Assembly (NCBI GenBank): GCA_965263045.1 | Contig: CBDHGK010000005.1 | Coordinates: 13,377-77,376 of the forward strand | Direction: 5' to 3' | From: Terriglobia bacterium | Lineage (GTDB): Bacteria > Acidobacteriota > Terriglobia > 20CM-2-55-15 | DNA: 64,000 nucleotides | In this document: piece after piece, positions 4,087 through 40,134 of the stretch | Layout of the letters: each line of letters begins with the position of its first letter | How positions within the stretch are numbered: position 1 is the first letter of the stretch | Program-made: the position numbers and the translations under genes | The notes under the pieces: model-generated | The model's input: the letters and a program-made list of their open reading frames with translations, nothing else | Databases searched by the model: none | Told to the model about the DNA's origin: nothing

Positions 4087-7000
4087 ATGAGATTTGTCGT
4101 CCTCCTCACCGTCGCCTGGCTTTACAACGTGGTCCCAGTTGTAGCGGGACCTCCGCAGACCCACGGATCGTTCTCAGTACCGGATCGGGGCGGACAATCC
4201 AACGCGAGCAGCGGAACGGCAGAGACACTGCGCGTCGGCTATGGGCGAATTCGCGCGGACGCGCGTTCGACTACCCCTTCCGGAATCGCGATATTTCAAT
4301 TCAGGGACAGCGATGGCGTCCTGATCTCCGAAGCGGGTGTTCCAGCCGCCGAGCCTGTCGTCGAGGGCCGGATATTCGCTGAAGTGAACGGTCCGGTCAA
4401 TACCGGCCTGGCGATCGCCAATCCGAACGACGTGCCGGCAACCGTCCGTTTCTATTTCACCGACAGCCACGGCGTCAATTCGGGTAGCGGCAGCTTCGAA
4501 CTCGGAGCGCACCAGCAGACGGCGAAATTTCTGGATCAGGCACCATTCAACGGTGGTCCCTCCGTATTGGGCACCTTTACGTTTACCGCATCGGTTCCTA
4601 TCGCCGTCATTGCCCTCCGGGGATTCACCAACGAAGCCGGCGAGTTTCTGATGACGACGCTTCCGGTCGCGCCCCTGTCGTCGACCTCCTCGGATACGGT
4701 CTACTTTCCCCATTTTGCAGATGGTGGCGGATGGGCGACCCATGTCATTCTGGTGAATCCGATGGATCGGACGATTACGGGAACGGTCGGATTCCTGGGA
4801 CAAGGGAGCGATACGGCGCCGGCAGCGCCCGTAGTCCTGACGCTGGACGATGGTTCGACGGGGTCAAGATTCGATTATTCCATTCCTCCCCGCAGCGCTC
4901 AGAGATTCATCACCGCGAACCCTCCCGGCGGACTGGCCGTGGGTTCGGTGAGAGCGACTCCCCACAGCGGGAACGCCGCCCCCTCCGGGCTGGTCGTCTT
5001 CTCTTTTGCCTCCGACGGAAAGACCGTTTCCGAAGCCGGGGTGCCCGCGCTACCCAAAGGGTCGGCATTCCGTGTCTATGTCGAAACGTCGGGAATGCCC
5101 AATCAGCCGGGCTCGATCCGAAGCGGACTGGCTGTCACCAATGCGGGAGCCACAACCAATACGGTGACGCTGGAGGTTACACGTCTGGACGGGTCGCTGG
5201 CGGTGCCCCCGGCCACACTGGCGCTTCCACCGTCGGGTCAGATTGCCCGCTTTATCGACGAGATATTTACACTGCCGGACAACTTTTCCGGGGTGGTCCG
5301 GGTGACCTCCACGGTTGAAGTGGCCATCGTTGGGCTGCGCTTGCGCGTCAACGAGCGAGGGGAATTGAAGGTGACGACGACCCCGCCATCAAACGAAACA
5401 GCTGCATCGACCACGGCGGAAACATTCTTCCCTCATATCGCGGACTCGGGGGGCTGGTCCACACAGTTCATCCTGTTCAGCGGAACGGCAGGCCAGGCCG
5501 CAGCCGGAACGTTGAGTTTCTTCGACTACACCGGGCAACCGCTGTATCTGGAGACGCCCGCCGGAGCCGACAACGGTTCCTTCGTGGGCCAAGTCCAACT
5601 CGCATGCGAGGACTGCGGCGCGTTCGAGGATGTCAATGTCGTGCTGACCAGCGCCGGTGTCCTGGAAACCACCACACCAAATGTCTACAGCCAATTCGGG
5701 TTCTTCGGCTTGACCGCTGGAGACTACATCATTCAGGTTCGGAAACCGGGATTCCGATCCACGCCCGCCCGGTCGTTCCGCGTCGAAGCGGACGGGCGTG
5801 TCTCAACCACGGACAAGACGTTCTTCCTCTATCCGCTCGACTCCGACACGTTCGTGTTCCATTGGGAGGAAGACCAAAGCGCCGCTGGGTATGAGTACTC
5901 GGCCCACATCAACGAACCTCTTGAGGTCGAATTTCTTGATGAGGAAGTCACGAGGGCCGACAGCTCGTCTGCTGACCAACTGTTCCACGACTACAACATC
6001 ACGCTGGTCGATCACGGAGACAATGCCTGGACGCACGAGCACGCCTATCGCCTGTGGCAAACGATGGAATCGATTCCTCAGCGGAAGCGATATTCGTACG
6101 GCGTACAGTCGGTGCTCCCGAGTCAGTGGATCATAGTCTCCGAGCACGTGGCAGACGACATCCGAATCGACGCCGACACCAACGGGTCCCGGACTGTTTC
6201 TATCTCGGTCGATGCTTTCGTCTATGCCACCCCGAGGATTGCCCGCGTCGAGGGGAAGCGAGGAGCCTACTACTCGAAGCGTCTGCACCATGCGGCGGTG
6301 CGGTTCGTTACTGACAATGGCAACGATGCGGATGCGTACGAGAAGATCCTCCAGGAACGATTCGGAGTGACAACGCGGATCACCGATCATACGACCTACC
6401 GTGAATTGAGCGCCGCGACAACCGATGAACCCGCTTGGCGTTTCCAGGAATTCCATGCCGAAGAGATCGTACAGATCATCAACACCCTTGAGGAGATGCC
6501 CGCCGGAATGCACGCCATCGGGGGACTCAAGTACCTAGTGAGACGCCTAGACGGAACCCCGCACCCTCTGTATCCAGGGGCTCCAGCCGTTGCCTGGACC
6601 GGATCCGGTTACATCGAATTCATGGAGCACGCTTTCAACACGTCCTCCATTCTCTCCGTCCACCGCCTGATCATTCACGAGAAGGCGCATTTCCTCTGGG
6701 CATATCTGTTCGGCGATCAGTTGAAGGAGGACTGGACCGAACTGGGGGGATGGTACCCCGATGCGAACGACCCGGACGGGTGGTCCACCACCAAACAAAC
6801 GGAGTTCGTCAGTGCCTACGCCCATCGGAAGAACCCCAACGAGGACATGGCCGAGTCAATCGCCTACTTCGTCATCAACCCGGATAAGCTGCGATCCCGC
6901 TCTCCTGGAAAGTACGAATTCGTGCGAGCTCGCATCATGCAGGGGAGTTTCTACATCTCGAAAATCCGCGAGGACTTGACGTTCGAGGTGTACAACCTTT

Positions 7001-31162: not shown

Positions 31163-33246
31163 CCCATGTTTACCCATTTGCCGCTTGATCGGGTGCGATT
31201 TTCGCCATTTTGGGCCGAAAACCCCGTAAGTTGTTGATTCCTGGTTGAGGTGACGAATGTAGTGCCATAATCGTTATGTTGGGGTTGAATTCGCTTGCGC
31301 CCCCCGGTATCGTGTTCCCATGTTCGTTCGCCGCACCCAAACCCGCCGCACCGAAAACGGCCAGATCTACTTCTCCCACCGCCTCGTCCGCTCCGAACGC
31401 ATCGGCGCCAAGGTCCGCCAGCGCACCCGGCTCAACCTGGGACGGCACTTCGACATCCCGCAGGCGGACTGGCCCCGGTTGTGCGTCCGGATCGAGGAAC
31501 TGCTTGCCGGACAATACGCCCTCATCCCGGACGATTCGGCCGCCCTGGAGCAGGAAGCCCAACGCATCGCGGCCCTGTTGATCGCCCGCGAAGCCGATCT
31601 CTCCGGCCCCGCCACCGGCGCCGCCCCCGAGACGCGGACCGTGACCGTGGAGGTGGATTCGCTAGAACTGACGCGCCCGCGTTCGGTGGGCGTGGAGCAG
31701 GCCGGCCTGTGGGCGATGGACCGGTTGGGGCTGCGGGAACTGTTCCAACGTCTGGGCATCAACGGCCCCCTGCGCGCCGCCGCGGCGGGATCGATTATCG
31801 GGCGTCTGGCCGCGCCCGCCTCGGAAAGGGCGACGCACCGCTGGCTGCGGGAACGCAGCGGCCTGGGCGAATTGCTGGGGGTCGACTTCGAGACCATGGG
31901 GGCGATGCAACTGTACCGGGCCTCGGACGCCCTGATGGCGCACCGGGACGCCATTGAAACCCACCTGTTCGAGCAGGCGATGAGCCTGTTCGATCTGCGG
32001 CCCACGGTCACCCTCTACGACCTCACCAACAGTTACTTCGAGGGTCAGGCCGAGGAGCAACCCCAGGCGCAGCGGGGACATTCCAAGGACAAGCGCCGGG
32101 ATTGTCCCCTCCTCACCCTGGGGCTCGTGCTCGATGGCAGCGGCTTCGTGCGCCGCTCCCAGGTCTTCGCCGGCAACGTGACCGAGCATCGGACCCTGCC
32201 TCAGATGCTGGAGGCGCTCCAGGCCCCCGGCGACGCCCTGGTGGTGATGGATCGGGGCATCGCCACTCAGGAGCGCGTCGCCTGGTTGCGCGAGGCCGGA
32301 TACCGCTACCTGGTGGTGAGCCGCCAACGCGACCGGCAGTTCGATCCCGAGGCGGCGGTCTCGATCCGGACGGCCTCGGGCGAGGACCTGCATCTGCACA
32401 AGACCGTGGACGAGGATGGCCAGGAAGCCCGCTTGTACTGCTATTCCGAGCAACGGGCCGAGAAGGAACAGGCCATGACCGAGCGCTTTGGGAAGCGTTT
32501 CGAACAGGCTCTGGACCAACTCTCCGAAGGCCTGTCCCGGCCGCGCACTCAGAAACGCCTCGCCCAGGTCTGGCAGCGCATCGGGCGGTTGAAGCAACAG
32601 AGCCGCGGCGCCGCCCAACACTACGACGTCCAGGTCGCCACCGACGACACCGGCGATACCGCGGTCGGGCTGACCTGGACCCGGCGTTCGGTCCCGGGCA
32701 CGATGGCCACCCATCCGGGCGTCTATTGTCTGCGCAGCAGCGAAACCGATTGGGACGAGGAAACGCTCTGGCGCACCTACATCACCCTCACCGATCTGGA
32801 GGCCGTCTTCCGCTCATTGAAATCCGAACTCGGTCTGCGCCCCATCTATCACCGCAAGCCCATTCGCGCCGAGGGTCACCTGTTCGTCACCGTCATCGCC
32901 TACCAACTCGTCCAGGTCATCCGCCGCCGCCTGGCCGCACGCGGGGAACACGCCAGTTGGTCCACCCTGCGCCGGATCCTCGGCGGCCAGCACCGCGTCA
33001 CCGCCACCTTCCGTTGCGCCGACGGCCGCACCCTGCACGTGCGCAAGGCCACCCGCGCCGAACCGCCTCAGCGCGCCATCTATGACGCATTGGACATCCA
33101 CCCCGCGCCCGGAGGGACCCGCAAAACCATCGCCTGATCTCCCCCATATCCCGCTTCTGTGCGCATTTGTAGTGCCACTTGCGCTTTTGAATCATCGTAA
33201 CTGCCTAATATATCAATGCTTTGCAAATCGGCTTGGTAAACATGGG
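31163..33246 (+). mobile_element. IS1634-family element, about 2.08 kb
   Basis: IR CCCATGTTTACC at both ends; (G)CTAC target duplication; excision restores DFCYDIREIL. Confidence 0.95.
31320..33137 (+). CDS. IS1634-family transposase
   Basis: MFVRRTQT, LYDLTNSYFEG, GHSKDKRRD, VVMDRG, LEAVFRSLKSELGLRPIYH. Confidence 0.95.
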   Translation: MFVRRTQTRRTENGQIYFSHRLVRSERIGAKVRQRTRLNLGRHFDIPQADWPRLCVRIEELLAGQYALIPDDSAALEQEAQRIAALLIAREADLSGPATGAAPETRTVTVEVDSLELTRPRSVGVEQAGLWAMDRLGLRELFQRLGINGPLRAAAAGSIIGRLAAPASERATHRWLRERSGLGELLGVDFETMGAMQLYRASDALMAHRDAIETHLFEQAMSLFDLRPTVTLYDLTNSYFEGQAEEQPQAQRGHSKDKRRDCPLLTLGLVLDGSGFVRRSQVFAGNVTEHRTLPQMLEALQAPGDALVVMDRGIATQERVAWLREAGYRYLVVSRQRDRQFDPEAAVSIRTASGEDLHLHKTVDEDGQEARLYCYSEQRAEKEQAMTERFGKRFEQALDQLSEGLSRPRTQKRLAQVWQRIGRLKQQSRGAAQHYDVQVATDDTGDTAVGLTWTRRSVPGTMATHPGVYCLRSSETDWDEETLWRTYITLTDLEAVFRSLKSELGLRPIYHRKPIRAEGHLFVTVIAYQLVQVIRRRLAARGEHASWSTLRRILGGQHRVTATFRCADGRTLHVRKATRAEPPQRAIYDALDIHPAPGGTRKTIA

Positions 33247-33250
33247 CTAC

Positions 33251-34732
33251 GACATCCGGGAGATTCTGAAAAAGGCCGGCCGGGAAGACGATTACATGGA
33301 ACTGAGCATGGACGGGAAATGGCAGTGGAACCCCCTGGCCGCGCACTGGCTCGATGCCTACTCCCTGGCCTATACCGTTTCCTCTCTCCTGAATCAGTTG
33401 TTCGGGAAGGGGAAAGATCCGTTCTGGCAACAGGCCTACACGAATCTGGTGAAGTGGATTATCGAGCTGTACCGGATCTTTCCCGGCCGCTGGGTGACCC
33501 TCCGGGATGTCTACCAGTGCGCGATCAACCCCGACCTGTTCAAGGAAAAAATCGATGAGGCCGGGGTTGTTGTCTACGTCCAGTTGCATGGGGAGATCGT
33601 GATTTCAGATAAGGATTGGAAGGCACACAAGGACGCGCTGCTCGCCTTTGGAAGCTGGAATGAACTTGAAGATGGGGAGTGTAAAGCCATCAAGACCCCC
33701 GCGTTGGAAGAATGGGTGCAAACGGAGGGAATCCCATACCGCATCACAGTGCCCAAGAGTCATACCAAACCGAAACGTTTGCTCGCGCGCTGGCAAAGTG
33801 TAAAGACCTGGTACGACCACGACTGGATGAAGCTGGACCCGAAACTGCGGACTTCGTGTGTCGAGGGGATTTCCAGTTTCCTGTCCCTGTTCGACATGGA
33901 GGACGTCGCTGATATTTTCTGTCCCCAGGCACCGCCGGTAGAGGACGCGGCCGAGCGACCCCAATGGGAGCCGAGAGAAGAAGGCGGAATCTGGAAGCAT
34001 CTGCCACCCCTGGACGAGCTGATCGAGAGCGGAAAAGTCCTCGCGCTCAACATGCCCGCCGGCTCGAATCCGGCCCTGGCCCGCGCCGTAGGCGTGTTCC
34101 TCAAAAACGCCTGGCTCCAGACCCTGCTCCGGCGGCCGGCACAGATGAAAGCGGACACGAAGCGTTACTTCCGGCCCGCCGTTTTTATCTGTGACGAGTA
34201 CCAGTCCTTCGCATCAGTCGGCGAGGACGACCCCTCGGGAGACGAGAAGGCGTTTGCCCTCACCCGGCAGTGCCGCGTCATCCCCATCGTCGCCACCCAG
34301 TCCATATCCTCGCTCCGATCCGTCCTGGGCACCTCCGAGGCTTGGCGCGCGTTGCTTCAGACGCTCCGCACCCGAATCTTCCTCTCCCTCAGCGACGACG
34401 CCAGCGCCGAGCTCGCCTCGAAACTGTGCGGGCAAGTTGCCAAGATCAAGCCGAGCTGGACCGTCACCGAATCGACGCGGCAAGCCGAAGTGTCGCTCCT
34501 GTCCGGCAAGGCCGGGGGCGGCCAGGGCTCGGTCGGAACCAGCAAGTCATTTCGGGAACAATGGGAGGCTTTATTTCAGCCCAGGGAGTTTGCCCTGCTT
34601 CCCAATTGCCAGGCGATTTGCCTGCCTTATGACGGCACCCACGCCACAAGTGCAGTCCGCGTCTATCTCAAGCCGTACTACCTTCCAGAGACGCAGCCCT
34701 ACTGGCGCGCCGTCGAGGCGGGGAAGATATGA
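33251..34732 (+). pseudogene. Type IV coupling protein, 3' part (TraD/TraG C-domain)
   Basis: WNPL, FWQQA, ICDEYQSF Walker B, ATQSISSL. Confidence 0.9.
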
Positions 34733-35724
34733 GCGCGGCAGATAGGGAGGGACGCGGCATGGACTACCTGCGCCCGTTTTTGCCGGGGCTGGAATCGGTT
34801 CTCGAAGATGAGGATGTCAGCGAGATCATGATCAACGGACCGGGCAACGTCTGGGTTGAAAGCCGGGGGAAAATCCGGGAGCATCCTGCCCCCGGCCTCG
34901 ATCGAGCGGCGCTGGATCGGGCGGCCATTCAGATCGCCCGGCCTCTCGGCCTCGATCCGGCTACCGCGCCTATTCTCGATGCCCGGCTGGACGACGGCTC
35001 CCGCGTGGCGATCTGTGTGCCCCCGGCCGCGCCGCACGTCGCCATCACCATCCGGCGCTTCGGCAAGCGGAGCTACTCGCCCGAGGATCTTGTGCGCTTC
35101 GGCTCACTGCCCCAAGAAGTCCTGGACGAGGCGCAGGCCGCGCTGCTGGGGCGGCGAAATATCCTGGTGTCAGGCGGGACCGGCTCGGGTAAGACCACGC
35201 TGCTCAATGCCCTGGTCGAGCTGCTCCCCGCCGACGACCGCATTGTTTCCATCGAGGACACCCTGGAACTCCGCATCGACCGGAAAAACTGTGTCCGCTT
35301 CGAGGCGCGGGGGATCGACAGTAAATCGGTGACGATCCGCGACCTCGTGCGCCATGCCTTGCGCCATCGCCCCGATCACATCGTGGTGGGCGAAGTCCGG
35401 GGCGGCGAGGCCGCCGATCTGCTGCAGGCGCTCAACACCGGGCACGGCGGATCCCTGACCACGATCCACGCCAACAACGCCGAGTCGGCCCTGTCGCGCC
35501 TCGCGACTTGCGCCATGCAGGGCGAGACTGACTTGCCCTGGGAAGTCACCTGTAGGGGCGTCGTGGACGGGATCTCCATGGTGATTCACATGACGCGGCG
35601 CGAGGGGAGGCGGTACGTCGAAGAAGCCCTCCACGTGGGCGATTACGACGCCGCAAAGCGGCGCTGGCACTACAGGCCCGTGGCGTTCGCCGACCCCCAG
35701 CTCAAACTGGCCGAGGTGCGGTGA
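34729..35724 (+). CDS. virB11: VirB11/TrbB/CpaF-family secretion ATPase
   Basis: [46 protein letters not shown]. Confidence 0.9.
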
Positions 35725-35882: not shown

Positions 35883-36809
35883 ATGAACGATAAATCAAAA
35901 CCTGCACTCTCTCAGGTGACACCACAAGCGCGCCACCACTTCACTCTCTTCGACCAGGTTGATCAGCTTGTAGGGGCCAGCGAAGCGGACGCCGAACTGG
36001 GCTTCATGACGCGGCTGCTGGCACTGTGTAGCTTGCCCCGTATTCACGCGAGCAACCAGACTTACTACAAACGGGTCAACGGGCCATACCGGCTCTACAT
36101 ACAGGCTGGTCCGGAAACAAAACTACCATTCGGCAACATTCCCCGCCTGCTACTGGCCTGGGTATGCACGGAAGCGGTACGGACCCAAAGCCGTGTCTTG
36201 ATCCTAGGCTCCTCGCTTTCGGAGTTCATGCGCAAGATGGGTATGGCTCCCGTCGGCGGTGGTCCTACAGGTGCTCGAACGAGGATCCGCAACCAGATGG
36301 ACCGGTTGTTCAACTCGCACATCGCACTAATCTACGAGGACGAACACGGAAAGGCCACAGTGAACTCGCCAATCGCCGACCGAACTGAACTTTGGTGGAA
36401 CCCCAAGCGCCCCAACGCACCGACGCTGTGGGAGAGTAAAATCGAACTCGGCGAGAAGTTCTTTGAAGAGATCATCAACCACCCGGTGCCTCTGGACATG
36501 AACATTCTCAATGCGCTTAAACGTTCGTCGCTCGGCCTGGATCTCTACATGTGGCTCACCTACCGGACCTTCGCGCTGGCCCACCCCCTCCACCTAACCT
36601 GGCCCCAGCTTTATCGCCAGTTCGGAGCTAACCCTACGCAGGCTACGGACAAAATTACTGTTCAAAACTTCCGGCGCAAGGTTCTCCGTGAGTTGAAGAA
36701 GATCAAGGTGGCATGGCCGGGATTCAAATACTCGACCGGGAAGGGCGTGTTGATTCTCTCGCCCTCCAAGCCATCCATCGCCCCCACAGGGCTTCAGCTT
36801 GTGAAATAG
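35883..36809 (+). CDS. repA: Plasmid replication initiator RepA (RepA_C-type family)
   Basis: LCSLPR, VNGPYRL, LPFGNIPRLLLAWVCTEAV, HPVPLD, LDLYMWLTYR. Confidence 0.9.
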   Translation: MNDKSKPALSQVTPQARHHFTLFDQVDQLVGASEADAELGFMTRLLALCSLPRIHASNQTYYKRVNGPYRLYIQAGPETKLPFGNIPRLLLAWVCTEAVRTQSRVLILGSSLSEFMRKMGMAPVGGGPTGARTRIRNQMDRLFNSHIALIYEDEHGKATVNSPIADRTELWWNPKRPNAPTLWESKIELGEKFFEEIINHPVPLDMNILNALKRSSLGLDLYMWLTYRTFALAHPLHLTWPQLYRQFGANPTQATDKITVQNFRRKVLRELKKIKVAWPGFKYSTGKGVLILSPSKPSIAPTGLQLVK

Positions 36810-36964
36810 GCAGGCCGATCTTCCCTTTCCCTGATCTCTAGACGCCTCCGTCCGCGTGAACGATTTTGCGTGGTAGGTGGGCCATCGAAGCTCTGCGAGG
36901 AATTCTGTGGGCTTAAGAGGCAATACGAATCCACAGTAAGCCTTTGTGTTTTAGCGTTTTGCAG

Positions 36965-37140
36965 GAATAAACGGGACACCTTAAAACTTGGCTTCTCTTG
37001 AATAAACGGGACACTTGCACCGTAATTCTCTTGAATAAACGGGACACCCTACATGTATTAAGAACAAATAGAAGATTAGGACATGTATTAGGCAAGGCGG
37101 GGGTTGTGAAAAAAAACAAGAAACAAGAAAATTATAAGAA
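36965..37140. promoter_or_regulatory. Putative iteron replication origin
   Basis: Three GAATAAACGGGACAC at 36965, 37000 and 37033, then two ACATGTATTA and an A-rich tract, directly downstream of repA. Confidence 0.75.
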
Positions 37141-37197
37141 AGTACTTTCGGCAAGTAGCGTCGGATTCCTTCGCTCCTAAATTGGGAACTAATATAC

Positions 37198-37226
37198 TTG
37201 ACATACCAGGTCGCCTAGCCTAGTAT
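37198..37226 (+). promoter_or_regulatory. Sigma70-like promoter using the IR -35 box
   Basis: TTGACA-17 bp-TAGTAT pointing at the passenger gene. Confidence 0.55.
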
Positions 37227-37232
37227 CCATCC

Positions 37233-38093
37233 TTGGATGCCCGCTTCAGTGAGCGCGGCTTTTCCCATACTCAAGTGCAATACCTAGACGGAATGCGGCT
37301 AAAGCGTCGCCGGACATGGAACCAGATCGACACACTCAAGGCAAAATTTACAGCCTTCATCGAGAGTGACCCTTACGTACCACGGGTCCATTTTGACAGA
37401 CAACCGCAACAACTCATCATGAGGGCCGAAATCAGACGCGAGGCCGATCCAATGTGGGGCGTCGACATCGGCGAGATCATCCACAACCTTCGATCTTGTC
37501 TCGATCACCTCACCCACGAGTTGTTCATTCGGCGTAATGGAGAGCCGCCGCCAATCGGATCCAAGATTCAATTCCCAATCTTCAAATTTATCCAGGGATT
37601 TGACGGGCGTGGAGTGCAGTTTCTGGATAAGATCAGTCCCGCTGCGATCGCCATGATCCGAGCCGAACAACCGTTCACGTCGGATCATGGCGGCACAGGG
37701 GAGGGCATTCAAAGCCCGCTCTGGCTTCTCCGCGAACTCTCGAATACCGACAAGCACCGCACCATCCAACTCACAGGGGCCATGGTCCAAGAATTCAGGT
37801 TCTCGTTCCCACCAGCTCTTCACACATTCAGACACAAGATTCTTGAACGTGCCGAAGTCGGGCCAATACAAAAGAACGCGAAACTTTGCCATGTCATGTT
37901 GGATGGAGCCGAGGAATGGCCCTTCTCCGAGGGTGACATCAATGGCACACTCGCCATTGATGTAGTTTTCCAAAATGGGAGTCCAGAACCGTTGTCCGCG
38001 CAGCCCGTTTTCTCGACACTCGTAGACATTGCGGACCGAACGGACCGAGTCCTGCGGAAATTTTTTGAGGGTATCTGGGACGCCGAATTGTGA
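37233..38093 (+). CDS. IS passenger protein, possibly HEPN-like
   Basis: GEIIHNLRSCLDHL and LRELSNTDKHR motifs; start TTG at 37233 or a later ATG. Confidence 0.7.
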   Translation: MDARFSERGFSHTQVQYLDGMRLKRRRTWNQIDTLKAKFTAFIESDPYVPRVHFDRQPQQLIMRAEIRREADPMWGVDIGEIIHNLRSCLDHLTHELFIRRNGEPPPIGSKIQFPIFKFIQGFDGRGVQFLDKISPAAIAMIRAEQPFTSDHGGTGEGIQSPLWLLRELSNTDKHRTIQLTGAMVQEFRFSFPPALHTFRHKILERAEVGPIQKNAKLCHVMLDGAEEWPFSEGDINGTLAIDVVFQNGSPEPLSAQPVFSTLVDIADRTDRVLRKFFEGIWDAEL

Positions 38094-38149
38094 GTTAGGC
38101 ATTGTCGCAATCCTCCTGGCAATAGTGGTAGACTCTCAATGTGAGAGAG

Positions 38150-38335
38150 ATGGACGCACCACCACAGAGAAGGAAAGCGAAGGCGGGGGGCAACCGCCCA
38201 GCTTCCAAAGGTGGGAGTAAGAAACTGGAAATGGTCGAAGGGTCCGAAGCGTTCAGTCGATTCCGCTCTGCAATGAAAGCTATCGTCAGGGGATGCGGCG
38301 TTTCCCGCGACCCTGCCTCTCGGACTCCTTCTTAG
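38150..38335 (+). CDS. Small basic IS passenger ORF, 61 aa
   Basis: EMVEGSEAFSRFRSAMKAIV; convergent with and overlapping the transposase stop. Confidence 0.45.
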   Translation: MDAPPQRRKAKAGGNRPASKGGSKKLEMVEGSEAFSRFRSAMKAIVRGCGVSRDPASRTPS

Positions 38336-39288
38336 CTAACTGACGCCTGACTAGGCAACCTCCCCGCAAGCTCGTCATAGGTCAACCGCCGACCAACCGC
38401 CCGCATCATAGCGAGAGAGAACCGCTCGAAATCTCCACCCTCAGCCTCACGGTTGTTGAACCGGAACGACTGCTCATCGAGATAGCGGAAAAGGTGGAAC
38501 GGTTCGACTGAGATGTACGTTCCGTTGAGGCCGCGTTTCAGTAGCGACCAGTAGTTCTCCATTCCGTTCGTGTGTACGTTTCCGTTGACGTACTCGACCG
38601 CATGGTTGATGACCTGATGGGCGAAGTCGGTAGCCAGCCCGTGATAGGACAGCAGCTCGTCGGAAAAGAGCGCGGCCCCCGCTTTGACGTGCTCGCGGAT
38701 TTGGGGTTGGATCGACCGCTTGCGCCGATCCTCAATCACGGTGGTCCGCACTCTCCCGTCACGTTCGAGCATCCCGAGTACGGCTGTCTTGTCCTTGCCG
38801 CCAGTGCCGGTGATCCGGCGCTCCCGCTTCGACGTGTGCATGTTCCGGGCCTTGCCGCCGATGAACGTCTCGTCCACTTCGACTTCGCCGCCAAGCTTCG
38901 TGAACGACCCGTCCTGCATGGCCTTCCTGATCCGATGATTCATGAACCACGCGGACTTCTGCGTTACGCCAAGGTGCCTACCCATCTCGTAAGACGAAAT
39001 CCCGTTCTTGCAGTTCACAACCAGCCAGACAGCGGTGATCCACTTGTCCAGGGCAATCGGGGAATCTTCAAAGATGGTGCCTGTCTTCAGCGAGAAGGTA
39101 GGCTGCTTGTGCTTCGCGTAGCACTTCCATACCCGAGCCTTGGCCAGCCACGTGACGCGATCACCGCCACACCGAGGGCACGTGACCGCACCATCGGTCC
39201 AGCGCAGTTCAATCATGAACTCGCGGCAGCGTTCGAAGTCGGAGAAGTATCGAACGGCCTCAATTAATGTCTTGGGATACTCCATCAT
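38332..39288 (-). CDS. IS1595-family transposase
   Basis: CPRCG zinc finger, VEVDETFIGG, VINH..Y, HTNGMENYWSLLKR, YLDEQSFRFN. Confidence 0.95.
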   Translation of the reverse strand: MMEYPKTLIEAVRYFSDFERCREFMIELRWTDGAVTCPRCGGDRVTWLAKARVWKCYAKHKQPTFSLKTGTIFEDSPIALDKWITAVWLVVNCKNGISSYEMGRHLGVTQKSAWFMNHRIRKAMQDGSFTKLGGEVEVDETFIGGKARNMHTSKRERRITGTGGKDKTAVLGMLERDGRVRTTVIEDRRKRSIQPQIREHVKAGAALFSDELLSYHGLATDFAHQVINHAVEYVNGNVHTNGMENYWSLLKRGLNGTYISVEPFHLFRYLDEQSFRFNNREAEGGDFERFSLAMMRAVGRRLTYDELAGRLPSQASVS

Positions 39289-39579
39289 GAGAGTTATAAC
39301 ATCGTGCCCCCGCTGGTATGTCAAGTATATTATTGCCCTAAATTGAACAGTGCAGCACAATTGTGTGGCCAGTCCCCGGCCGGATCCTCCGGAAACAGTC
39401 GCGCCGGACCGCGGTCCTTGCCCTGGGCGTCCGTCACTCTTTTTTGTAGGGGATGGGACCTCCATTCTGTTTCCGGTGGCGGCTTCGCCATTCCTTCCGC
39501 GTCCGGGCTCAGAGGTTGCCGCCTATCCTGAGCGAGCGGCAACGCCCCAGACCCTATAACTCTCAGGAAGAAAAACATT

Positions 39580-40134
39580 ATGGCGAACTCGAAATCCGTC
39601 CCTAAAATCCGCATCGGCTCCCTCAAGGCTGCCATCTCGCCCAACGACACCGAAGGTCGCATCCGCTACACCATCACCTTCTCCCACATCTACAAGGACG
39701 GTGAGCAGTGGAAGACGACACAGACCTTCGATCGCAACGACCTGTTGATCCTGGCGAAAGTGGCCGATCAGGCGCACACGCGGATCTTCAAACTTCAGCA
39801 GGGTAGCGGTGCCCACGAGGAGGAACAAGCGCCGAAAAGCGGCGGCCTGGGCCGCCGCTTTCCATCAATAACGGGCGGGCCAAACCGTGACGCTCACACA
39901 ATCAAAATCCGGGCCATCGATCAGAAACAACACTGCGCTACTCACCACCTGGAACACCCAAGGATGGGGCGCCCACTTTTGCTGGGTCTACAGCGGCACA
40001 CGATGCCATTCAGTGCCCTGCCGTCCTCTGTGCCATCCCGATCCGGTCATCGAATCCACAGTCTAGAAAAACGGTTTTCCGATCCGGGGCCACACCGAAG
40101 CTTCGCCGTTGCCATAGGTACAGAAGAATCCTGA
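39580..40134 (+). CDS. Small ssDNA-binding-like protein, copy 1 (conserved part ends near 39810; stop apparently lost)
   Basis: First 75 aa align with 41038-41301 (IRIGSLKAAI..ITFSHIYKDGEQWKTTQTF..LAKVADQAH); the ORF reads through a hairpin. Confidence 0.6.
   Translation: MANSKSVPKIRIGSLKAAISPNDTEGRIRYTITFSHIYKDGEQWKTTQTFDRNDLLILAKVADQAHTRIFKLQQGSGAHEEEQAPKSGGLGRRFPSITGGPNRDAHTIKIRAIDQKQHCATHHLEHPRMGRPLLLGLQRHTMPFSALPSSVPSRSGHRIHSLEKRFSDPGPHRSFAVAIGTEES
39836..39861 (+). terminator. Probable intrinsic terminator
   Basis: AAAGCGGCGGC-CTGG-GCCGCCGCTTT, perfect 11-bp stem. Confidence 0.6.

Follow-up and report, generated by a model that had tools for sequence, protein, structure and literature searches.

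Transporter insertion sequences (tISs), that is, insertion sequences (ISs) holding genes other than those for transposition between their inverted repeats (IRs), are a known class of mobile element, and their cargo is usually regarded as accidental. Within the IS1595 family, the tIS groups ISPna2+, ISNwi1+ and ISNha5 of ISfinder were reportedly described by Siguier, Gagnevin and Chandler in 2009. Other ISs hold a second gene, IstB in IS21 and TnpB in IS200/IS605, that is co-mobilised with the transposase in many independent elements. Here we analyse an IS1595-family element in a 64,000-nucleotide stretch of DNA from a Terriglobia bacterium of the phylum Acidobacteriota (GenBank assembly GCA_965263045.1, contig CBDHGK010000005.1, positions 13,377 to 77,376; this whole stretch is hereafter the window), which holds, beside its transposase, a passenger gene for a 272-residue protein. 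We find that this passenger is not casual cargo, since it belongs to a large, unnamed and patchily distributed family whose sole recurrent neighbour is the IS1595 transposase. The first-pass annotation of this DNA had taken the protein for a divergent HEPN toxin or anti-phage RNase, and we also consider what became of that assignment and which other roles the protein may have.

Results

An IS1595-family element and its empty site

The element spans 2153 bp (37185-39337) and is complete, with an intact transposase. Its IRs, of 25 bp each, agree at 23 of 25 positions: the left repeat (IRL, 37185-37209, plus strand) reads GGAACTAATATACTTGACATACCAG, the right repeat (IRR, 39313-39337, minus strand) is given by the reverse complement GGCAATAATATACTTGACATACCAG, and an inward-facing TTGACA lies inside each, that of IRR standing before the transposase. 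The 16-nt core of these repeats occurs twice in the window, both times at the IRs, where chance would lead one to expect 0.05 matches. Directly outside lie the two copies of an 8-bp target-site duplication, CTAAATTG (37177-37184 on the left, 39338-39345 on the right), which match each other perfectly; such IRs with an 8-bp duplication are what the IS1595 family is known by. The genes enclosed are the transposase on the minus strand and, on the plus strand, the passenger and a small open reading frame (ORF) of 61 residues, both convergent with the transposase. With its N-terminal zinc ribbon, the 318-residue transposase (38332-39288, minus strand) is a DDE transposase of the IS1595/ISXO2 type, as its matches in Pfam (DDE_Tnp_IS1595, PF12762, 3.8e-41; Zn_ribbon_IS1595, PF12760, 1.1e-07) and NCBIfam (NF033547, 2.1e-56) indicate, and its catalytic region, in which VDETF and FSDE are followed by HTNGMENYWSLLKR, can be read as that of the DDE-K type. 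The closest IS1595 transposase among 72,556 plasmid records is at most 40% identical to it, and the element is present in a single copy in the host genome.

An empty site, which the first-pass annotation had proposed to look for, was found in the same genome. When the two flanks of the element were joined and compared against the host genome and 40 relatives, they matched a stretch of contig 36 end to end at 94% identity (G000:C36:28812-29774, locus L049; loci are cited by L numbers throughout). The uninterrupted site there reads TTCGCTCCTAAATTGAACAGT and holds CTAAATTG once, which fixes the element at 37185-39337, with its length of 2153 bp and its 8-bp duplication, and means that the host genome holds a sister replicon whose origin region is uninterrupted. 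The insertion is one of normal DDE transposition, with the duplication made in the spacer between the iteron-bearing, AT-rich origin and the next gene. Transposase domains, IRs, duplication and empty site together support the earlier reading of the locus as an intact transporter element of the IS1595 family, and the IRs, perfect 8-bp duplication, intact transposase and two convergent ORFs that it had described were all seen again.

Two further observations concern the ends of this copy. IRL begins with GGAACT (37185-37190), all seven related element ends being GGCAA(T/C/G), so that positions 3 and 5 deviate from every sister copy (GGAAC versus GGCAA); these two changes within the terminal six bases of IRL might impair further transposition of the window copy. 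At the other end, the transposase frame stays open upstream of its start (39289-39465), through IRR and as far as an ATG at 39465 outside the element, and read-through from outside could in principle make a transposase extended at its N-terminus.

Transposase and passenger travel together in at least three phyla

We compared 65 loci of the passenger family. Their sources were contigs from metagenomes, 43 species genomes and a sample spread evenly over the window's phylum. An IS1595 transposase stands beside the passenger-family gene at 20 of the 65 loci, in Acidobacteriota, Actinomycetota and Dormibacterota, and at 9 of 25 loci in the unbiased phylum sample. Of 301 genomes of the phylum, 88 have IS1595 transposases, with few copies in each, and we estimate the probability of adjacency by chance to be well under 1%. 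All-against-all clustering of the neighbouring ORFs returned no recurrent partner besides the IS1595 transposase. The two genes occur in four arrangements (convergent, transposase first, passenger first and divergent), and the hosts recorded for them are Terriglobia and other Acidobacteriota, Solirubrobacterales, Thermoleophilia, Acidimicrobiales, Gaiellales and Dormibacteria.

Eight elements could be delimited by a perfect 8-bp duplication of their own, namely those of the window, L002, L005, L103, L085, L086, L019 and L031. All eight have GGCAA-type IRs that enclose transposase and passenger over 2.0-3.2 kb, and one unit of 2073 bp, consisting of transposase and passenger, was seen between different flanks in two genera, the copies being 99.7% identical. 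The passenger thus lies within the IRs and moves with the transposase, as in a tIS, in insertions that are independent and have each made their own duplication; transposase and passenger move together as units of 2.0-3.2 kb in at least three phyla. Like other tISs of the IS1595 family, these elements combine a DDE_Tnp_IS1595 transposase bearing a zinc ribbon with IRs that start in GG, an 8-bp duplication and at least one gene not for transposition. They differ from the known ones in that the passenger is a single uncharacterised family, which recurs with IS1595 transposases across phyla and is exchanged within that family.

Departures from the simple two-gene layout were seen at several loci. 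Two divergent passenger paralogues stand in tandem in L012 and L013 (5058-5897 and 5965-6813), in L093 (4995-5792 and 5852-6652) and in L017, and the pairs of L012 and L013 adjoin a single IS1595 transposase. In L005 about 385 extra bp (5620-6005) separate the left IR from the passenger start.

A large protein family without a known fold

The passenger gene (37275-38093, plus strand) encodes 272 residues from GTG 37275 to the stop at 38093; the ORF already opens at TTG 37233 (286 residues), and relatives place the homologous start at GTG 37275. An exhaustive HMMER search, in which clusters were counted at 50% identity, retrieved 6240 cluster representatives at E ≤ 0.001 and 1056 at E ≤ 1e-10, mostly of 250-290 residues and all without a name. 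The passenger and 64 relatives matched no model of Pfam (E ≤ 1), NCBIfam, PADLOC or PHROG, so that none of them corresponds to a defence protein catalogued in PADLOC-DB 2.0. No fused domain was found in the longer members of the family, a profile search of sequences in the Protein Data Bank (PDB) gave a best match of only E = 1.7, and we found no description of the family in the literature on IS1595 passengers.

Conservation was computed over 147 members. G66 and H161 are present in all of them, P133 in 99%, F100 and P101 in 98%, and Q132, D159 and K160 in 97%, as is an acidic residue (Glu or Asp) at position 67; D77 follows with 96% and R73 with 94%, K10 and R13 are conserved at about 85-88%, and H70, N71 and R162 are further conserved residues. 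Mean pairwise identity is 35% over the N-terminal 165 residues and 19% over the C-terminal part. Judging from this alignment, conserved residues next to a variable half are what one would expect of an enzyme whose site is fixed, polar and rich in basic residues. AlphaFold modelled the full-length protein with a mean predicted local distance difference test score (pLDDT) of 94.5 and a predicted template modelling score of 0.89, and the N-terminal 165 residues alone with a pLDDT of 95.8. The model runs from a long helix through a beta hairpin, a second long helix, short helices and a helix ending in SNxDKH to a four-stranded sheet and a final long helix. Neither the full model nor its N-terminal core found a match in the PDB with Foldseek (best E 0.45 and 0.64, template modelling (TM) score ≤ 0.35), and the sole match in BFVD is a phage homologue of the family.

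The passenger is not recognisable as a HEPN protein

By definition (Anantharaman et al., 2013, PMC3710099), a HEPN domain is an up-down bundle of four helices, the third of which ends in a conserved Rx4-6H motif. In LRELSNTDKHR, the segment on which the first-pass annotation had based its HEPN assignment, seven residues separate Arg from His, which is outside the Rx4-6H range; its Arg, R153, is kept in 30 of 147 members (20%) and replaced by His in 55 of 147, H161 being invariant. The alternative pair R73-x4-H78 has a conserved Arg and a His found in 94 of 147 members (64%), with Tyr in its place in the closest IS-borne copies. Neither pair supplies the conserved Rx4-6H expected where helix 3 ends. 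When all HEPN families of Pfam were compared with 64 members of the passenger family, no match appeared at E ≤ 1, and hhalign comparison with an alignment of DUF4145 (HEPN clan, PF13643), built from 24 genomic matches, returned a probability of 0.2-0.3% in local, global and insert-deleted settings alike, so that similarity to HEPN was not seen at the level of profiles either. Structure prediction, which had been put forward as a check on the assignment, gave a mixed alpha/beta protein in which Foldseek detected no HEPN fold and no four-helix up-down bundle superposes on solved HEPN domains. What resemblance is left is N157-x3-H161 at a helix end, the same place as the HEPN His (PMC3710099). 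Motif, sequence models, profile comparison and fold all fail to bear out the assignment; the passenger is not recognisable as a HEPN protein, and the label should not be used for it.

Exchange of the passenger and its rate of evolution

The element of L103, which interrupts a PSCyt2/PSD1 gene and has its own duplication TTTACAAG, matches that of the window in its IRs and is 83% identical to it in the transposase and 68% in the small ORF. The passengers of the two elements share only 28% identity, and nucleotide homology starts exactly at 38150. That the same backbone carries so different a passenger indicates a cassette exchange. The spacer that follows the passenger in the window (38094-38149) holds the right border of the exchangeable cassette, as homology with L103 begins at 38150. 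The spacer of L002 holds a second, nested IS of the rve type (5833-6895 of that locus), at the position equivalent to 38101.

Rates were compared among three close copies (window, L002 and L005). Against its sister copies the transposase has a ratio of nonsynonymous to synonymous substitution rates (dN/dS) of 0.09-0.14 at a dS of 0.8-1.1, whereas dN/dS in the passenger is 0.37-0.63 at a dS of about 0.19, with changes spread almost evenly across codon positions. Such unlike values mean that the two halves of the element have different histories, and the passenger appears to evolve under weak or diversifying selection. Passenger dS is four to five times below transposase dS in this trio, which is best explained by cassette exchange, extra constraint on the DNA or RNA of the passenger being the alternative. 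Passenger and transposase trees are correlated in a Mantel test when the close trio is included (r = 0.50, p = 0.0006) and no longer so without it (r = 0.20, p = 0.12); their congruence is driven by the trio. A further sister copy, L104 (844-1664), comes from a Logan contig and has a frameshift that breaks its passenger into two tblastn pieces in different frames, which is either decay or an assembly error.

Passenger homologues in phages, on plasmids and as stand-alone copies

Prophages of actinobacteriophages keep single-gene defence or exclusion genes in a reverse-oriented block beside the integrase. A tblastn search identified gp32 of the temperate Gordonia phages ZiggyZoo and Samba as a homologue of the passenger (25% identity over 71% of the length). 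Annotated as hypothetical, gp32 lies in a leftward-transcribed block adjoining the serine integrase, and in this it is like those prophage genes; it differs from them in having no recorded phenotype, and its identity to the window's protein is 25%. Four actinobacterial plasmids, from Streptomyces, Arthrobacter and Mycolicibacterium, carry copies as well. The family is patchy, being found in 16 of 301 genomes of the window's phylum, and near some of its stand-alone copies are genes for type I restriction-modification, MADS and DrmD-like proteins, an IS21 helper, resolvases and a relaxase. At L003 (1599-4559), the gene after a stand-alone homologue that shares 51% identity with the passenger encodes a 986-residue protein with weak matches to a ResIII helicase and a TnsA-like endonuclease and a PADLOC match to a type III restriction enzyme.

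Small ORF, antisense ORF and promoters

The small ORF (38150-38335, plus strand; 61 residues, or 64 from GTG 38141) has a stop that overlaps the transposase stop. It is kept in L002, L005, L103, L104 and the window, that is, in this IS clade only, and forms one cluster among 5.8 billion proteins. Its dN/dS is about 0.57, and its start codon is weak in the sister copies. The region from the passenger stop to just past the small ORF (38094-38340) was considered as a structured RNA and rejected (fold z = -0.58). An antisense ORF of 267 residues (37299-38102, minus strand) is a mirror-frame shadow of the passenger: it is open because TTA and TCA are absent from the sense frame and CTA occurs there only twice (codons 4 and 9), and as its selection signal is no better than that of the sense frame, we rejected it as a second gene.

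Before the passenger lies a promoter-like TTGACA-17 nt-TAGTAT (37198-37226, plus strand), a 10/12 match to consensus. The first-pass annotation had proposed an IR-borne promoter with a 17-bp spacer here. The pattern stood, as the TTGACA embedded in the IR does face the passenger; enrichment of such sites over shuffled sequences did not, with 2 found and 1.7 expected. In convergent elements TTGACA is kept in both IRs, each facing a gene start, and in co-directional elements TTGAC is kept only in the IR upstream of the transposase. This dependence on gene orientation favours an IR-borne -35 box, and the inward TTGACA of each IR probably supplies one, the left for the passenger and the right for the transposase.

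Replicon and flanking genes

A gene for a RepA_C-type plasmid replication initiator (35883-36809, plus strand; PF04796, 3.3e-32) is followed by three 22-bp iterons, TTCTCTTGAATAAACGGGACAC (36958-37047, plus strand), spaced at 33-35 bp within an AT-rich tract, the GC content falling to 38-41% across 36900-37200. In an iteron-type origin, direct repeats and an AT-rich tract come after the Rep gene; the layout here is the same, and we predict a RepA_C origin. As the element sits about 130 bp right of the iterons, its earlier description as lying beside the plasmid origin is fair. Upstream of the RepA_C gene are genes for a TraG/TraD-like coupling protein (33221-34732) and a VirB11-like ATPase (34729-35724), and a 605-residue DDE_Tnp_1 (IS4-type) transposase ORF (31320-33137) stands within this conjugation cluster, directly before the coupling-protein gene. 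The stretch of the window that includes the RepA gene end, iterons and origin (36700-39825) has a second, IS-free version on contig 36 at 94% identity, and two closely related RepA_C origins must coexist within one assembly. The gene to the right of the IS (39580-40134; 184 residues, no Pfam match) looks like a multi-copy mobile-element gene, since together with its upstream leader (about 39380-39825) it is repeated at least eight times in the host genome at 78-86% identity (contigs 2, 10, 18, 26, 27, 31, 38 and 39) and also occurs in several related genomes.

Discussion

The combination of a mobile, exchangeable gene with a strongly conserved set of polar residues leads us to propose that the passenger is a self-sufficient, fast-evolving conflict enzyme acting on a phosphate-bearing substrate, a reading to which we give about an even chance. 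As no constant partner gene accompanies it, the protein would act alone. In its N-terminal alpha/beta core, His161, Asp159, Lys160, Arg73, Asp77, Gln132, Lys10 and Arg13 would be the residues of a site that accepts a phosphate-bearing substrate, a nucleic acid or a nucleotide, and the beta-rich, variable C-terminal half would give specificity. It would most likely serve in genetic conflict, whether in abortive infection or defence or in toxin-like maintenance, and its benefit would pay for the upkeep of the element in the host. Patchy presence, elevated dN/dS, a variable C-terminal half and homologues in phages and plasmids are traits that would suit such a role.

Several points weigh against this proposal. 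We know of no activity, toxicity or defence phenotype for any member of the family, and none of the PADLOC defence models matched the passenger or its 64 relatives. Defence-type neighbours stand at few of the roughly 27 stand-alone loci, beside housekeeping genes, and enrichment in islands is weak. That the conserved residues form one pocket is assumed, and the promoter of the passenger is a consensus match only. The high dN/dS among the three close copies could equally reflect relaxed constraint, and the sister copy in L104 has a frameshifted passenger. Finally, that the family is found again and again beside one kind of transposase would also be consistent with a part in transposition itself.

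It may be, then, that one sub-lineage of IS1595 uses the passenger as an accessory protein in transposition, such as a regulator, a factor binding target or ends, or a retention nuclease, with a role like that of IstB or TnpB and a fold unlike theirs. The IS1595 transposase as sole recurrent neighbour (20 of 65 loci, three phyla), minimal elements of 2.0-2.1 kb that hold transposase and passenger alone, a slot that is refilled from the same family when exchanged and the partial congruence of the two trees all speak for this. Yet about two-thirds of family members, phage and plasmid copies included, have no IS1595 transposase within 5 kb, and only about 9 of some 250 IS1595 transposase matches in the phylum sample have a passenger of this family. 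Order and orientation of the two genes vary four ways, congruence is lost once the close trio is left out, and the passenger evolves far faster than the transposase, so that we consider an accessory role unlikely. The comparison with IstB and TnpB holds for co-mobilisation of a second gene in many independent elements; it ends there, for the passenger has no relation to either in sequence or fold, most members of its family are free of a transposase, and gene order is not fixed.

A second possibility is an RNase of HEPN type that works without metal and has diverged very far, serving as toxin or anti-phage effector; H161 would then be the catalytic residue, and other basic residues would stand in for the lost Arg. 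N157-x3-H161 stands at the C-terminal end of a helix and is followed by a loop, as in the HEPN motif (PMC3710099); L-[R/H]-x-L-S-N-x-x-x-H resembles the LRxxGNxxxH of DUF4145, and R73-x-x-L-D77 resembles its R-x-x-L-E, the sole stretch that hhalign aligned. HEPN families that lack the motif Arg are described, and long helices separated by inserts could be compatible with a four-helix core. The likeness to HEPN proteins such as DUF4145 and the Abi-type RNases (Anantharaman et al., 2013, PMC3710099) thus comprises an invariant His at a helix end with Asn at -4, an upstream R-x-x-L-[D/E] helix, and occurrence on mobile elements and in phages. Against it stand an Arg that is replaced in four-fifths of members and lies seven residues from the His, the lack of any HEPN match among 64 members in Pfam, the very low hhalign probability in every setting, Foldseek results without a HEPN structure for either model, and a 272-residue mixed alpha/beta model with a hairpin and a four-stranded sheet, and we regard a hidden HEPN domain as improbable. 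More improbable still is that passenger and small ORF form a toxin-antitoxin (addiction) pair stabilising the IS and the plasmid. The small ORF does follow the passenger on the same strand in five related copies, and the element resides on a plasmid-type replicon; however, this ORF is confined to one IS clade as a single protein cluster, is weakly constrained with a poor start codon in sister copies, and stays on the transposase side when the cassette is exchanged, and the 2.0-2.1-kb elements, the stand-alone copies and the phage copies have no such partner. The conserved unit of toxin and small antitoxin that marks type II systems was not found.

A broader reading can be put forward, though only tentatively, as we think it less likely to be right than wrong: that the 272-residue protein represents both a new enzyme fold and a new IS-borne module, an exchangeable single-protein conflict or retention enzyme that belongs to one branch of IS1595 in at least three phyla and is used by phages and plasmids as well. 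Were this true, the passenger would keep burdensome elements in place by excluding phages or by killing or curing whichever cells or DNA have lost them, and would be swapped among variants much like defence cassettes. Across phyla, and with exchange of the cassette, a single transposase family is linked to a single unstudied passenger family that comprises at least 6240 clusters at 50% identity and lacks both a Pfam model and a solved fold. This tie provides a testable handle on the function of the passenger family and bears on why some ISs keep a second gene. If the passenger does prove to be a defence or addiction enzyme, it would be a one-gene system mobilised in units of about 2 kb, the smallest scale possible.

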